43,782 nt of DNA from Candidatus Bipolaricaulia bacterium (lineage in GTDB: Bacteria > Bipolaricaulota > Bipolaricaulia > JBHIAT01): assembly GCA_046758705.1 (NCBI GenBank), contig JBHIAT010000008.1, forward strand, positions 1-43,782, written 5' to 3'. The notes under the pieces were generated by a model that was given only the letters and a program-made list of their open reading frames with translations, ran no database searches and had not been told where the DNA came from. The position numbers and the translations under genes were made by a program. Positions 27,711 to 38,039 of this stretch are shown here, one piece after another (the first letter of the stretch is position 1; every line of letters starts with the position of its first letter).

Positions 27711-28799
27711 ATGAAGCGATGGTATGTGATCCAGACCTACGCAGGCTCCGAGTTGAAGGTGAAGGAGGAGCTGGAGAAGCGGGTCGCGGAGCTGGACCTA
27801 GAGAAACAGAAGAGGATCGAGGGATTCGCGACCGACGGGGACTGGAGCCATTTTATCGTCCCGATCGAGGAGGTTATCACCTCGCAAAGCCGTAAAGGCA
27901 GAGCCGGCCAATACCGGATCCCCTATGACTACGAGTTGAAGGTCAAGCCGAACCAGCGGATCGAACGGGGTACGCTGATCGCTGTCAAGCCGGTCAAGCG
28001 GATGGATTTCGACGCGGTCGCCCGCAACCTGGAGACGTTCCAGCGGGTCATCGTCGAGATGACCAACAAGAACGAGGAGGAATACTTGATCCCCAGGGAG
28101 AAGAAGATTCGCCGGGATATCAAGACGGGCGGCAAGATTCGCCGGGGGGTCCCGTTGACTCAGGATCAGGATGAGCGGTTCATCGTCGATACCAAAGGCA
28201 AGATCGTGCTGCGTGACCGGGCGAAGCGGATCGAGTTCGAGCGAGACGATGGCTCGGTCGAGATGATGACGGTTCCCGAAAGCTACCTGGTTCGGGTACG
28301 AAACGGGATGAAGTTCCACAAGGGAGATCTGTTAGAGGAGGAGGATCGGATCTACTCCAAGGTCTCAGGGATGGTGAAGATCAAGGAGTACAAGGAAAAG
28401 CGGTTGATCACCGTCCAGCGGATCGAGAAGCGCAGGATCTTTCCGGGGTATATCTTCTGCAAAGTGGAGATGGATGACGAGATTGCCAACCTGGTCGATG
28501 GGATACGGAGCACCTGGTTTGTGGGACGGGATCGCCCACTTCCTCTGGATGAGGAGGATATGAAGGTCGTCCAGCGCAAGGCGGGGCTTATTGAGGTCCC
28601 GACTGCGCCCGAAGGACCGAAGATCGAGGTCGACTTCGAGGTCGGCGAAGTGGTGGAGATCATCGACGGGCCGTTCGCCGACTTCACCGGCGAGATCAAA
28701 TCGATCGACAAGGATGCCGAAGAGGTCACGGTGATGGTCAAGATCTTCGGCCGGGAAACTCCGGTTACTCTGGGATTCGAGGGGATCGAGAAGATCTAG
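27711..28799 (+). CDS. nusG: Transcription factor NusG with a large internal insertion
   Basis: [18 protein letters not shown] and [19 protein letters not shown]...IFGRETPV; about 180 extra residues between them. Confidence 0.95.
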
Positions 28800-28815
28800 G
28801 GGTAAGGAGGGTCAA

Positions 28816-29247
28816 ATGGCCAAGCGGGTTGAGGCAAAGCTTTCGCTCCAGATCCCGGCCGGGGGAGCCAATCCCTCACCGCCGGTGGGCCCGGCGTTGG
28901 GCCAACACAAGGTCAACATCAAGGAGTTTTGCGACCGGTTCAACAAAGCGACTCAGGACGAAGAGCCCGGGATCCTGATTCCGGTGGAGATCAACGTTTA
29001 CGTCGACCGGAGCTTCGACTTTATCACCAAGAAACCGCCGGCCTCTGAGCTCATCAAGCGGGCGGCCGGGATCGAGGCAGGGTCGGGCGAACCCGCCCTG
29101 ATGAAGGTTGGCAAGATCTCTCGGGAGCAGCTGAAGCGGATCGCTGAGCGCAAACTGCCCGATCTCAACACCTACAAGTTGGACGCTGCGATGCGGATCA
29201 TCGAAGGGACGGCCCGGAGCATGGGGATCGAGGTGGTGGAATCTTGA
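28816..29247 (+). CDS. rplK: 50S ribosomal protein L11
   Basis: [14 protein letters not shown] and [12 protein letters not shown]. Confidence 0.98.
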
Positions 29248-29951
29248 GGCGAGGCAAGCGGTACCTGACGGTCCGGGAACGGATCGATCGTGAACGGGTC
29301 TATCCGCTGGACGACGCGCTGAACCTCGTGGTCGAGACGGCGACCGCCCGCTTCGATGAGACCGCCGAGGCCGCCTTCCGGCTCGGCGTGAACCCCTCCC
29401 AGCACATGATCCGGGGGGCGGTCAGCCTACCCCACGGGATCGGACGCCAAGTCGTCGTCCTGGCGTTTGCCAAGGGGGAGAGAATTCGGGAGGCCGAGGC
29501 GGCGGGGGCTGACTATGTCGGCGGGGAAGAGCTTGCCGAGAAGATCCAGGACGGATGGCTTGAGTTCGATCGAGTCGTCGCTACCCCTGATACGATGGAG
29601 TTCGTCGGCCGATTAGGGCCGATCTTGGGACCTCGGGGAATGATGCCGAACCCCAAGTCGGGTACGGTCACCCAGGAGATCGGCGAGATGATCCGTGAAC
29701 TGAAGCAAGGTCGGCTCGAGTTTCGGGTGGACAGCCACAGCAATCTGCACACCCCGTTTGGCAAGGCCTCGTTCCCGATCGATGCCCTCAGGGAGAACTT
29801 CATCGCCCTGACGGTTGCCGTCCTCGAGGCGCGGCCGAATGAACTGAAGGGGAAGTACCTGCGTGGTGCTGCCGTCTCATCAACGATGGGGCCGGGAATC
29901 AAACTGGACATCGACGAAGTGCACGCCGTTGCCGCCGAACGAATGCTCTAA
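29244..29951 (+). CDS. rplA: 50S ribosomal protein L1
   Basis: [23 protein letters not shown] and [11 protein letters not shown] start overlapping the rplK stop. Confidence 0.97.
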
Positions 29952-29968
29952 CAGAGACGGAGACGGAG

Positions 29969-30919
29969 ATGCCAACCACTATTAAGGTGCAACAGATCGA
30001 GACGCTCGTGGAACGGTTCTCCACGGCGACCGCCCTGGTCGTCTCCGACTATCGGGGGCTGTCTGCCCAGGAGATGGTGTCGCTGCGTGAGCGGTTTACC
30101 AAGAACGAGCTGGAGTACCGGGTGGTGAAGAACACCTTGGCACGGGTCGCCGCGGAACGAGCCAAGGTGAACGACATTGCCCAGCTCGTTGAAGGTCCGA
30201 CCAGCATCTGCTTCGGGTATGATGACCCGGCGCTCCCATTCAAGATCTGCAGAGAGGTTCAACAGACGTACCCCGCCTACAAGATCCGGGGAGGATTCAT
30301 CGAAGGGGAACTGGTCACGGTCGAAGAGGTGGCCCGGATCGCTGACCTTCCCAGTCGGGAAGTGTTACTGGCCCAGGTCGCCTCAACGTTGAACGGGCCG
30401 GTCAGAAACCTGGCCGTGACCCTGAAGGGAATCATCCAAGGACTGGCGGTGGTCCTGTCCCAGGTCGTGGAGCAGAAGACCGATGGGACCGAGGTCAGTG
30501 CCAGTGAAAGTGAAAGTGAAAGTGAAGGAGGAAGCGAAACGATGAGTCACGATGAGATCCTGGAAACGATCGAGGAGATGAAGGTGCGTGAGCTGGCCGA
30601 CTTGGTGTCGTTGATCGAAGAACGATTTAACGTCTCCGCGGCCGCCGCTGCTGTCGTCCAGGCGGCCCCGACCGGAGATCAGACCACAACGGCCACAACC
30701 GAGGAGACGAGCACCATGAGCGTTGTGCTCACCAACGCCGGACAAAAGAAGATCCAGGTGATCAAGCTGATCAAGGAGATCACCGGCAAGGGTCTGAAGG
30801 AAAGCAAGGCGCTGGTCGACAGTCTGCCCCAACCGATCAGGGAAGGGGTCGAAGCGGAGGAGGTCGAGACCCTGAGGAAGCAGTTTGAGGAGCTCGGTGC
30901 CGAGGTCGAGATCCGGTGA
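29969..30919 (+). CDS. rplJ: Ribosomal protein L10 reading in frame into L7/L12 (316-aa fusion ORF)
   Basis: L10 motifs DYRGL, YRVVKNTL and LPSREVLLAQ, followed by a linker and the complete L7/L12 sequence with no in-frame stop. Confidence 0.93.
   Translation: MPTTIKVQQIETLVERFSTATALVVSDYRGLSAQEMVSLRERFTKNELEYRVVKNTLARVAAERAKVNDIAQLVEGPTSICFGYDDPALPFKICREVQQTYPAYKIRGGFIEGELVTVEEVARIADLPSREVLLAQVASTLNGPVRNLAVTLKGIIQGLAVVLSQVVEQKTDGTEVSASESESESEGGSETMSHDEILETIEEMKVRELADLVSLIEERFNVSAAAAAVVQAAPTGDQTTTATTEETSTMSVVLTNAGQKKIQVIKLIKEITGKGLKESKALVDSLPQPIREGVEAEEVETLRKQFEELGAEVEIR
30503..30526 (+). repeat. (AGTGAA)4 hexamer repeat in the L10-L12 linker
   Basis: Read directly; encodes SESESESE. Confidence 0.92.
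30542..30919 (+). CDS. rplL: 50S ribosomal protein L7/L12 from an internal start
   Basis: AAGGAGG RBS about 10 nt before ATG 30542; MSHDEILETIEEMKVRELADLV...FNVSAAAA...KKIQVIKLIKEITGKGLKESKALVD...LGAEVEIR. Confidence 0.92.
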   Translation: MSHDEILETIEEMKVRELADLVSLIEERFNVSAAAAAVVQAAPTGDQTTTATTEETSTMSVVLTNAGQKKIQVIKLIKEITGKGLKESKALVDSLPQPIREGVEAEEVETLRKQFEELGAEVEIR

Positions 30920-31013
30920 CACGGGCAGTCCACAGATTCTCTTCGTTCCGTTATCACTCGTTGTCCGTACCTATACCTATACCCAGTATCTTAATCCTAA
31001 TGAGGGGGTGTGT

Positions 31014-34766
<3,753 letters not shown>

Positions 34767-34770
34767 CCTT

Positions 34771-36306
34771 TCAGAATGCCTCGCGGATGACGTTGAGAAA
34801 CCCGCTGAGCCGAGCGAGGGCCAGATAAACCCCGACCCCGAGGGTCAGCGGCAACAGCACCAGCACCCATTCGGACGGGACGAACCCGGAGAGCCAGCGG
34901 CCGACGCCGTAGACGGTCAGACCCATCACGATCGATGCCCAAAATATCTGAACGATCCTGAACGAGATCAGCCGCACGCCGAGCCTGCGCTGAAGCAGGA
35001 GATAGAGGCCCGCCATGTTGAACAGCCCGGAGATCGCGGTCGCCAACGCCAACCCTCCCTCGCGAAGCGGCCCGATGAGCGCATAATCGAGGATGATGTT
35101 GATGATCACGGCGCCCCCCCCGATCAGGGCGGGGATCCTGGTGTCCTTGAACGCATAGAAGGCCCGGGTCAGTAGATAGACAAGGCTGTAACCGATCAGG
35201 CCGATCAGGTAATAGTTGAGCGCCAGCAGCGTCCTGGTGGTTGCCTGGGGACCGAACAGCCCGTGTTCGAACAGGAGCCGGATCGTCGGCTTCCCGATCG
35301 CATAAAGCCCGGCCGTCGCCGGAAGGATCACGAACGTGGTCAGTTCGATCCCGGTCCGCAACGTGGTGACGAACCCCGCTCGATCTTCGTTTGCCGTATG
35401 TCGGGAGAGCCGGGGAAGGATTGCATTGGAGATGGCGACGGCAAACACCCCGAGCGGGAGCTGAAACAACCGGATCGCGTACTGGAGTGCGGAGATCCCC
35501 CCGGGTTCGAGTCGGGAGGCGAGCTTGTTGTCGACCAGGATGTTGATCTGGACCACTGCCAACCCGATCATGATCGGCAGGATCATCCTGAACATTCGTC
35601 GGATTCCCTCGTGGTTCGGATTCAGGACGGATCGATAGACGAATCCGCGGCGTCTCAGGAACGGCACCTGAATCAGAAGCTGTCCCGCCCCGCCGACGAG
35701 TACCCCGACTGCCAGTCCGTAGATCGGTTTTCCGAACAACGAGCCGATGTAGAGCGCGCCGCCGATGACCCCCAAGTTGAAGAGCACCGGGGCGAACGCC
35801 GGGGCGAAGAAGTGGTCATAGCTGTTCAGGATCCCCATAAACAGAGCGGCGATGCCGACCAGTGCGATGAATGGGAACATCACTCGGGTCAGGTTGATGG
35901 TGAGCGTCATCTGTTCAGGGCGATCACGGAAACCGTCGGCGAGAAACGGGATGTAATACGGCGCCAGTAAAACCCCTGCCACCACGAGGACAGGGAAGAT
36001 GAGCAGGATCAGGTTGAACAGATTGCTGGCAAATTCGTCGGCGGCGCGCTTGCCCCGTTTGGTCAGATACTCGATGAAGATTGGCACCATGGCGGTGCTC
36101 AGTGTCCCCTCAGCGAGCAGGCGACGCAGCATATGAGGGACAAAGAACGCGATGATATAGGCATCGTAGGCGGCTCCGGCCCCGAATCGATCGGCGATGA
36201 TCACATCCCGGGCCAGGCCGAACAGGCGGCTCACCAACGTCGCACCGGCCATGACCAGCGCATGGCCGAGGAAGCCCCTGACAGCCCGCTTGCCCTTGTC
36301 ACTCAC
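34771..36306 (-). CDS. murJ: Lipid II flippase MurJ (MviN)
   Basis: TLVSRLFGLARD, LRRLLAEG, YAIRLFQLPLGVF and RAFYAFKDTRIP; multi-TM. GTG start at 36306 overlaps the upstream stop (GTGA). Confidence 0.95.
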   Translation of the reverse strand: MSDKGKRAVRGFLGHALVMAGATLVSRLFGLARDVIIADRFGAGAAYDAYIIAFFVPHMLRRLLAEGTLSTAMVPIFIEYLTKRGKRAADEFASNLFNLILLIFPVLVVAGVLLAPYYIPFLADGFRDRPEQMTLTINLTRVMFPFIALVGIAALFMGILNSYDHFFAPAFAPVLFNLGVIGGALYIGSLFGKPIYGLAVGVLVGGAGQLLIQVPFLRRRGFVYRSVLNPNHEGIRRMFRMILPIMIGLAVVQINILVDNKLASRLEPGGISALQYAIRLFQLPLGVFAVAISNAILPRLSRHTANEDRAGFVTTLRTGIELTTFVILPATAGLYAIGKPTIRLLFEHGLFGPQATTRTLLALNYYLIGLIGYSLVYLLTRAFYAFKDTRIPALIGGGAVIINIILDYALIGPLREGGLALATAISGLFNMAGLYLLLQRRLGVRLISFRIVQIFWASIVMGLTVYGVGRWLSGFVPSEWVLVLLPLTLGVGVYLALARLSGFLNVIREAF

Positions 36307-38039
36307 GACCCTGGAACCTGGGCCTGGGCTCCGGTCTCCCGGGGGATGATCGTCAGGCCCACCGCTACCCGCCTCCTCTGACCGACCTGCTTCAACCTCC
36401 CGTCCTGAGTGAAGACGAGTGAGCTCGATCCGCCGCCATCCAGGGCCATCGCATCCCTCACCCCGAGCCCCTTCAGGAACCCCGCCAGTTCCCAAAGGTC
36501 CATCCCCGAGCCGTTGAGCGGTCCGTTCTGAACCACCACCAGCAGGATGAGCTCGTCCTGATAGGTGGTGGCAATGACGCTCCTGGCAGTCTTCAGTCGG
36601 GCGAAGCCAGAATCGAAGTTCTCCCGCTTGGGATCGAGGACTAACTGGCCGTCTTGGAGCAGCCTTGGACCGGCGCTGATCGCGTTGCGGATGTTGATAT
36701 AATAGGGGTCGAGCTGGTAGGTGAGGCGAACCTTGTCGCCGAGCTTCAGCACCTGCATCGCCTCGGCTGCCTCCCCACTAGCGATCAACAGGTGGCTCAC
36801 CCCATCCGTGAACAGCACCGACGGCCGGTGCACCTCAAAGATCTGTCTCACCCGACCGAACCAGATCTTCGCGACCACCACCGGAAAGTCGAAGTTGATC
36901 TTCCTGTTGTAGTTCGGGGAGTAGAGGGTCAGCTCTCCATGATGAAGCGGGTGATTGACGTCCTCCACGGGGATCGTATAGCGATCGTTCTCCACAAACA
37001 GCGCCACCGTCGGGTTGAAGAAGATGGCCCGACCGTCCCAGTTCTCCCCCATGGCGGCCCGTCGCTCGTAGTTGGGGCTTAACAACTCACCATCTTTGAT
37101 CAGAAGCCCTACCGGAATGTTGGTCTCCAGGTCGAAGAAATTGGCGTTGATGCCGGCCACCCCGCCGCTGGAGGCGACCATCTCCTTTAACGAGTCGAGG
37201 CTCCCGATGCCGGCACCGGGCAGGGTCGGTTCGAGACGGTAGTGGGAACTGTAGTTGGCAATCTTCAGATATCTTAACTCGGTCAGTTGATTATTGAAGA
37301 TGCGATCGATCTCATGATAACTGATGTTCGCGTCCAACTGAACACTGCGCTCCAATGTCGAATCCCCATCGATGGTGACCTCGACGAACTCGCTGCTCTC
37401 CCCGGCGAACCGCCGCATCTGGACCCCGAGCGGATATCTCAGATAGAGCTTCAGAAGAATTTTATAGGGCCGTTCCCGCAACAGTTCGGCCCGCTCGATC
37501 AGCCAACTGGAGGTGGAGACCTGCTGATCAGAATATTCCCAAGGGACGTTGAACAGGGTAAGCAACAGGGTCCGTTCATCGAGCCACTTCGGCTGTATCG
37601 GAGTGAACCGGGAGAGCTCGATAATGATGCGGTTGTCCTCGATAGCGATCCCACGCAGCTGGCTGGGAGGGATCCGGATGTAGATCTGCTCCCCGCTCGG
37701 ATAGAGCTGAATTCCCAAAAGCTCAGCGAGGGTTTCCAGCGGCAGATAGGTACGATTATCATGAAGGGTCAGCGTCTCCACGGGCAGGTCGATGCGCCGC
37801 GGTCCATTCTCGAGCGTCACCACCCCTTCCGCATACCGAACCTCGGCCCCCAGGTACATTGCGGTCGCCCGCAACGGAACCAACACCCGGCCGTCGGCAA
37901 CGGTCAGGGGAGTGATGTCGATCCTGCGCCCGTTGACGAAGATCTGCGCGGCGGTGGGAGAGGGTAGGGCCGTCAGATAAGGATAAAGAATGAAAAATAT
38001 CGTGGCGAGAACCCAGCAAGCGTATCTGATCCGTATCAT
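36303..38039 (-). CDS. Exported phosphodiester glycosidase (NAGPA-like) family protein with an N-terminal copper-amine-oxidase-type stalk domain
   Basis: Signal peptide; GRVLVPLR stalk repeats; AGINANFF, AISAGPRLL and DAMALDGGGSS. Confidence 0.85.
   Translation of the reverse strand: MIRIRYACWVLATIFFILYPYLTALPSPTAAQIFVNGRRIDITPLTVADGRVLVPLRATAMYLGAEVRYAEGVVTLENGPRRIDLPVETLTLHDNRTYLPLETLAELLGIQLYPSGEQIYIRIPPSQLRGIAIEDNRIIIELSRFTPIQPKWLDERTLLLTLFNVPWEYSDQQVSTSSWLIERAELLRERPYKILLKLYLRYPLGVQMRRFAGESSEFVEVTIDGDSTLERSVQLDANISYHEIDRIFNNQLTELRYLKIANYSSHYRLEPTLPGAGIGSLDSLKEMVASSGGVAGINANFFDLETNIPVGLLIKDGELLSPNYERRAAMGENWDGRAIFFNPTVALFVENDRYTIPVEDVNHPLHHGELTLYSPNYNRKINFDFPVVVAKIWFGRVRQIFEVHRPSVLFTDGVSHLLIASGEAAEAMQVLKLGDKVRLTYQLDPYYINIRNAISAGPRLLQDGQLVLDPKRENFDSGFARLKTARSVIATTYQDELILLVVVQNGPLNGSGMDLWELAGFLKGLGVRDAMALDGGGSSSLVFTQDGRLKQVGQRRRVAVGLTIIPRETGAQAQVPGS

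Follow-up and report, generated by a model that had tools for sequence, protein, structure and literature searches.

Fusion of the ribosomal stalk genes rplJ and rplL in a Bipolaricaulia genome and in other bacterial lineages

In the genome of a Candidatus Bipolaricaulia bacterium the ribosomal stalk genes rplJ (L10) and rplL (L7/L12) are joined in one open reading frame, located in a stretch of 43,782 nucleotides that was analysed as a whole (hereafter the window), and this fusion is genuine at the DNA level. We consider it probable, with appreciable room for doubt, that a single base change gave rise to the fused gene and that its expression would yield both an L10-L12 chimera and, from an internal start, free L12, the outcome being a conventional stalk with one tethered arm.

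The fused gene, its product and its surroundings

The fused gene extends over positions 29969-30919 of the plus strand (316 codons followed by a TGA stop) and, according to the ORF list and Pfam, encodes in a single frame L10, an acidic linker of about 20 residues and a complete L12. Three Pfam families were matched, all above their cut-offs: Ribosomal_L10 (PF00466) at residues 6-97, with 77.5 bits against a cut-off of 22.8, Ribosomal_L12_N (PF16320) at residues 195-235 (51.1 bits) and the Ribosomal_L12 C-terminal domain (CTD; PF00542) at residues 251-315 (83.9 bits). No Pfam family beyond these was found in the fused protein at E ≤ 0.01. An AF2 model, for which 44 fused sequences served as input, reached a mean pLDDT of 77. 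The uL10 globular rRNA-binding domain, assigned from PF00466, the model and an alignment to L10 chains, takes up residues 1-129 (29969-30355), where the pLDDT was mostly above 90, and the L10 portion aligned to the B. subtilis and T. maritima L10 chains of solved structures. One long helix then spans residues 130-172 (30356-30484) of the model, and by its alignment with T. maritima it corresponds to alpha-8, the L12-binding helix of uL10. Because residues 110-171 of the fusion align without gaps to residues 118-179 of the 180 in T. maritima L10 (1zav_A), this alpha-8 is judged to keep the full length of the T. maritima form, and binding of L12 to it is predicted. A helix of that length is said, in the paper on the 1ZAV structure, to bind three L12 dimers. 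Past the helix lies the acidic linker (residues 173-191, DGTEVSASESESESEGGSET; 30485-30541), predicted to be disordered, with a pLDDT below 50 and no secondary structure over residues 172-192. The complete bL12 moiety (residues 192-316; 30542-30916), recognised by Pfam, by the model and by alignment, was modelled with N-terminal domain (NTD) helices at 194-220, a low-pLDDT hinge at 224-248 and the CTD at 250-315, and from Met192 onwards it matches positions 1-128 of T. maritima L7/L12 (1dd3_A), from the first residue to the end. On every feature examined, the protein qualifies as a uL10 and likewise as a bL12.

The junction itself contains a hexanucleotide repeat, (AGTGAA)4, found by a script search at 30503-30526 (plus strand), which encodes SESESESE within the linker. 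It runs into a Shine-Dalgarno (SD) motif, AAGGAGG, at 30525-30531, recognised from the sequence and from the comparison with the closest relative (locus L006), and this is followed by a GAA codon (Glu190; 30536-30538) at the position of the relatives' rplJ stop. Codon 192 is an ATG at 30542, with the GGAGG core ending 10 nt upstream, and it is the probable internal start of L12. The TGA triplets of the repeat fall in the +2 frame only, and the +1 frame is open across the repeat up to a TGA (30543-30545) overlapping the ATG. The region of the internal start was no more folded than shuffled sequences (z 0.13). A promoter and terminator scan of 28700-31200 returned 0 promoter-like and 1 terminator-like element, the latter on the minus strand, which is within chance expectation. 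An earlier note on this DNA had described an L10 that lacks a stop and passes, after 191 codons, through a linker partly encoded by the fourfold repeat into a complete L7/L12, with the TGA triplets out of frame and the ATG at 30542 preceded by an intact, strong AAGGAGG; the single 316-aa ORF, its Pfam matches and the positions given above agree with this description in every part.

The genes around the fusion are ordered tuf, secE, nusG, rplK, rplA, fused gene and rpoB. The rplA gene (L1; 29244-29951, plus strand) lies directly upstream, with a gap of only 17 nt between its stop and the rplJ ATG. An Rfam scan of the window found no L10 leader, the four tRNAs being the sole families matched, and given also the shortness of this gap, there appears to be no autoregulatory leader of the usual L10(L12)n type between rplA and rplJ. 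Downstream, rpoB occupies 31014-34766 on the plus strand if its start is placed at the ATG of MKQRER... in the ORF 30885-34766. Other peculiarities of the neighbourhood were observed. The ORF between secE and rplK (27711-28799), which is nusG by position, encodes 362 aa, about twice the usual nusG length, and therefore points to a large insertion in this gene. Directly after rpoB, a 574-aa ORF on the minus strand (34766-36495) has many hydrophobic segments and is taken, from its sequence alone, for a MurJ-like flippase; rpoC is not adjacent to rpoB, which is unusual for bacteria. In the whole source assembly (G000), a metagenome bin of 319 contigs that is 93.9% complete with 4.7% contamination, one match to PF00466 and one to PF00542 were found, both inside the fused ORF.

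The DNA sequence of the junction was compared with Logan contigs, not raw reads, of the four runs that contain the region, all from one hydrothermal-vent study. In the contigs of X1, X2 and X3 the junction showed 0 differences and no indels, at a word depth of 8.6-11.2. X1 and X2 are possibly the window's own source, and X3 is a third sample not flagged as such, its evidence being a 404-nt contig over 30277-30680 with a word depth of 8.6. The fourth run, X4, holds a strain diverged by 3-5% whose contigs skip 30133-30747 and hence the junction. Records of the fused protein exist in both NCBI and Logan, on 2 contigs in all. The indel or base error that the earlier note had wished to exclude is thus not seen in the contigs of three samples, which read the junction identically, with the proviso that contigs drop rare variants and come from one study, so that a minority allele at this site is unlikely but conceivable.

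Stop loss in Bipolaricaulia and fusions in other lineages

All the relatives compared share only their class, Bipolaricaulia, with the source genome. The stop between rplJ and rplL was missing in none of the 40 relatives of a first set, and in just one of the 183 other Bipolaricaulia genomes (G113; 2 of 184 with the source genome included), which answers the earlier note's proposal to look for such fusions in related genomes. In 22 of the 40 relatives both genes lay in one frame, split by 1-3 stops, and the same arrangement was found in at least 68 genomes of the class among those listed. Among the 19 junctions that were read, 10 consisted of a stop, one codon and the ATG, in frame, and one of a stop and the ATG. 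The closest relative (G001, locus L006) reads GGAGG-aaag-TAA-ACG-ATG and the window GGAGG-aagc-GAA-ACG-ATG (GGAGGaaagTAAacgATG versus GGAGGaagcGAAacgATG), with the same 10-nt spacing from GGAGG to ATG; 3 of the 18 nucleotides around SD, stop and ATG differ, one of them being the T versus G in the stop. The fusion probably arose via a single T>G change at 30536 (TAA>GAA, Glu190) that removed the L10 stop, the ancestral stop position being deduced from kin just 44-54% identical. A 1-nt indel in an ancestor with an ATGA overlap is a possible alternative origin, with the +1 frame ending at the TGA of 30543-30545. The window's fusion is probably young and confined to a single species.

The second fused genome, G113, belongs to another family (locus L026, G113:C7:15097-16047, minus strand) and has the sequence GGAGCCTCA-CAG-ATG, the corresponding stretch of its kin G115 being GAGGCGAGC-TAA-ATG. 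Since the CAG takes the place of the TAA, directly before the L12 ATG, this case represents a second, independent stop loss. Another 13 Bipolaricaulia loci with long open frames were rejected as fusions, as they encode an L10 with a long acidic tail followed by a separate L12 ORF. Many L10 proteins of the class (L027-L039) extend beyond alpha-8 into strongly acidic C-terminal tails of low complexity, 20-100 residues long, one example being the 268-aa L10 of G135, and the SE-repeat linker of the window looks like a short version of these tails.

Outside Bipolaricaulia, the fusion was most consistently found in Nitrospirales. All 59 readable loci (L040-L098), titled Nitrospira, Nitrospiraceae, Nitrospirales or Nitrospirae, with one binned as Geobacteraceae, had no stop across rplJ-rplL; L117, on a low-coverage Nitrospira contig, was left out of the 59 since its match has a length not divisible by three. 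Identities among the 59 fused proteins range from 52 to 100%, and all 20 other, more distant loci retain stops. An even sample of 301 Nitrospirota genomes (G184-G486) gave 73 full-length matches without a stop, at 60-100% identity, many of them on multi-megabase single contigs, and 2 further partial matches that cross the junction without a stop. In this sample the matches with at least 60% identity were all fused, and the listed full-length matches at 56% or below all had at least one stop. In 5 of 5 single-contig Nitrospirales genomes the sole L12 CTD lay inside the fused ORF and no separate rplL was found. As judged from these loci, the fusion is fixed across Nitrospirales, including the nitrite-oxidising Nitrospira, and it is old, showing a design that is viable over the long term and need not be harmful.

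Protein searches extended the picture. A HMMER pass over 1.84 billion cluster representatives (50% identity) revealed at least 21 further fused clusters among the best 150 inspected, with proteins of 297-332 aa matched end to end in a single stretch. A further fused cluster, with the labels Dehalococcoidia or Chloroflexota, comprises four members drawn from three sources, and many elsewhere are singletons on short contigs. In a profile search of a 5.8-billion-protein collection, the L10 and L12 Pfam domains occurred together in 42 of the 120 matches listed, about 35 of these 42 being 307-312 aa long and named just 'large subunit ribosomal protein L7/L12'. The Nitrospirales loci described above were those retrieved for one of these proteins. 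Seven candidates (P0038, P0039, P0045, P0047, P0073, P0191 and P0193) with Arg/Pro-rich junk between the domains are likely frameshift artefacts and were not counted. A word-index search with residues 120-260 gave the window's own protein as the sole fusion, which marks the sensitivity limit of that method. Five other proteins (P0005, P0006, P0007, P0022 and P0026), of 593-1056 aa, carry 6-7 tandem L12 CTDs according to Pfam, and one such protein also has LRV/HEAT repeats. The premise of the earlier note that bacterial L10 binds separately encoded L12 does not hold as a universal rule, given the fused genes of G113, Nitrospirales, a Chloroflexota cluster and at least 21 other clusters.

Proposed expression of the fused gene and alternative explanations

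The Nitrospirales loci offered a view of the internal start over a longer time. An internal ATG at the L12 N-terminus was present at all 59 loci, and an SD-like 4-mer occupied positions -16 to -5 relative to it at 58 of them. As a background, such a 4-mer preceded 25 of 323 other internal Met codons and 15% of all codons; since the genomes counted are related to one another, the numbers overstate independence. In the group-A Nitrospirales a perfect AAGGAGGA was found at 10 of 10 loci, with AAG-GAG kept at synonymous sites and variation in the neighbouring residues. Selection for an internal start would be expected to produce such a pattern. The intact SD and ATG of the window may be mere inheritance from a recent stop loss and are not in themselves evidence of selection.

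In PMC1635324, the stalk is described as carrying four or six L12 per L10, with L12 bound to alpha-8 as NTD dimers. Since the fused ORF is the sole L12 gene, the free L12 for such a stalk must originate inside it. A precedent exists in E. coli, where, according to PMC10666635, de novo initiation at rplL leads to about fivefold more RplL than RplJ. The conserved internal ATG and SD of Nitrospirales, the sole L12 gene and this precedent together favour the production of both a chimera and free L12. The proposed course of events would be as follows. In the ancestor, two genes in the same frame would have lain 3 nt apart, in the arrangement stop-ACG-ATG, until TAA>GAA at 30536-30538 fused them. 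Ribosomes starting at the rplJ ATG would since then read through into a 316-residue chimera composed of the uL10 body, a full-length alpha-8, the disordered acidic linker of about 20 residues and a whole bL12, and other ribosomes would start at AAGGAGG-N10-ATG (30542) and make a free bL12 of 125 residues, supplying the remaining copies. With three dimers bound to alpha-8, a capacity suggested by its collinearity with T. maritima L10, the free copies would number five. At the last alpha-8 site the NTD of the tethered L12 would form a pair with one free L12, as the 20-residue disordered linker would easily permit, and the stalk would otherwise be conventional, with one arm covalently attached. 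We infer both products, their stoichiometry and the binding in cis.

Several alternatives were weighed against this proposal, two of them concerning the standing of the fusion itself. It is very unlikely that the open frame is an artefact, a true stop after L10 being hidden by a minority allele or by an error of consensus or assembly. The source is, admittedly, a 319-contig bin with 4.7% contamination, and the contigs come from one study in which two runs may be the window's source; nevertheless, separate assemblies of three runs, each from a different sample, agree at the junction at a word depth of 8.6-11.2, NCBI and Logan both recorded the protein, on 2 contigs, and like fusions are common and real elsewhere, including in multi-megabase single-contig genomes. 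The fusion might otherwise have arisen recently by accident in a single vent population, being neutral or mildly harmful, tolerated since the chimera would still assemble, unselected and likely to be lost, which we regard as unlikely yet deserving of some weight: one base change is enough to cause it, both Bipolaricaulia fusions are found in single species of different families without fused kin, and elsewhere many of the fused clusters consist of a single member on a short contig. This account has to contend with the fused allele being the only one seen in three samples, with the fused ORF being the only source of two essential proteins and with a design fixed and conserved across a whole order, Nitrospirales. 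It bears, moreover, on history and not on mechanism, and does not conflict with a chimera accompanied by free L12.

The other two alternatives accept the fused DNA and differ in what is made from it. SD-like elements stimulate some frameshifts, as in prfB and dnaX, and the mature stalk could be conventional if L10 and L12 were parted by a +1 shift near the repeat and SD or by proteolysis of the linker. The +1 frame crosses the repeat and stops at the TGA of 30543-30545 with an SD-like element just upstream, and linker residues 172-192 are predicted to be disordered, both of which suit such a separation; neither a slippery site nor a protease motif was recognised, however, and since the Nitrospirales junctions are much shorter and of other composition, no common signal for cleavage or recoding is evident, so we hold this account to be improbable. 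That the chimera alone is made, without internal initiation, would imply a stalk with one tethered L12 or chimeras binding each other. The case for free L12 is indirect, which leaves this idea a slight chance, but it accords poorly with an alpha-8 that retains its full length and with an internal ATG and SD conserved in Nitrospirales far above background, as well as with L12 binding as NTD dimers in four or six copies per stalk, as stated in PMC1635324, and we find it hardly credible. A chimera accompanied by free L12 from the internal start is therefore the reading carried forward here, and since the fusion is fixed in Nitrospirales, of which cultured strains exist, it is directly testable.

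Significance and comparison with known systems

Independent fusions with DNA evidence number at least three (two Bipolaricaulia lineages and Nitrospirales), and the Chloroflexota cluster and many others may be further independent stop-loss fusions. A broader reading, offered tentatively and with a little less than even confidence, is that bacteria have repeatedly evolved an L10-tethered L12 by loss of the rplJ stop, with an internal start yielding the chimera and an excess of L12, and that this amounts to an undescribed, P0-like variant of the stalk; if so, the window would present the first evolutionary step of the design. No description of a natural L10-L12 fusion was found in the open literature searched, and the repeated fusion of the two genes by stop loss, together with conservation of the internal start, appears to have gone undescribed so far. 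Public records label the Nitrospirales fusions merely 'L7/L12' or 'L10', names that conceal the fused architecture. The fusion in the window is probably an independent, recent case of an architecture that public databases already contain without remark. All translational GTPases are recruited by the L10-L12 stalk, whose number of L12 copies (four, six or eight) is regarded as evolutionarily tuned. A stalk in which one L12 is naturally fixed would bear on whether the exchange of L12 on and off the ribosome matters, on how stoichiometry gets set from one ORF and on the tolerance of essential multi-subunit machines to gene fusion.

Compared with the canonical rplJ-rplL operon (E. coli, B. subtilis, and T. 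maritima, 1zav/1dd3; L10(L12)4 or L10(L12)6), the window has the same proteins in the same order, its context matches rplK-rplA-rplJ-rplL-rpoB and the SD and ATG of rplL are retained, but there is no stop between the genes and one L12 would be covalently attached. The Nitrospirales fusion resembles that of the window in combining PF00466, PF16320 and PF00542 within a single ORF (about 308-311 aa in Nitrospirales), in being the sole source of L12 and in having an internal ATG with an SD-like motif. The junction differs, since in Nitrospirales about 10 residues lie between alpha-8 and the Met, in an ancient and fixed arrangement, whereas the window has about 20 residues with a hexanucleotide repeat in one species. 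The two fusions are 36-40% identical, and given this low identity, the different phylum and the unfused kin on both sides, they are independent.

The archaeal and eukaryotic uL10 (P0) bears its own P1/P2-like C-terminal arm, and the earlier note had regarded the fusion as convergent on that design. As a functional analogy this is reasonable, both being a uL10 with a flexible, acidic, factor-recruiting arm plus the binding of small-stalk-protein dimers. The arm of the window is, however, a whole bL12 (NTD, hinge and CTD), unrelated to P1/P2 in sequence and fold, and it came about when translation read through into the neighbouring gene. The extension proved to be bL12 by its Pfam and PDB matches and not a P1/P2-homologous tail, so the likeness is one of analogy and not of membership, and the fusion is not of P0 type.

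In-frame internal initiation giving two proteins is known for IF2 alpha and beta from infB and for the long and short forms of ClpB and of CheA. The expression proposed for the fused gene is of the same kind, with a full-length product and a shorter one made from an internal SD and ATG in the same frame. In contrast to those systems, the short product would here be needed in several-fold excess, and both products would join one complex.
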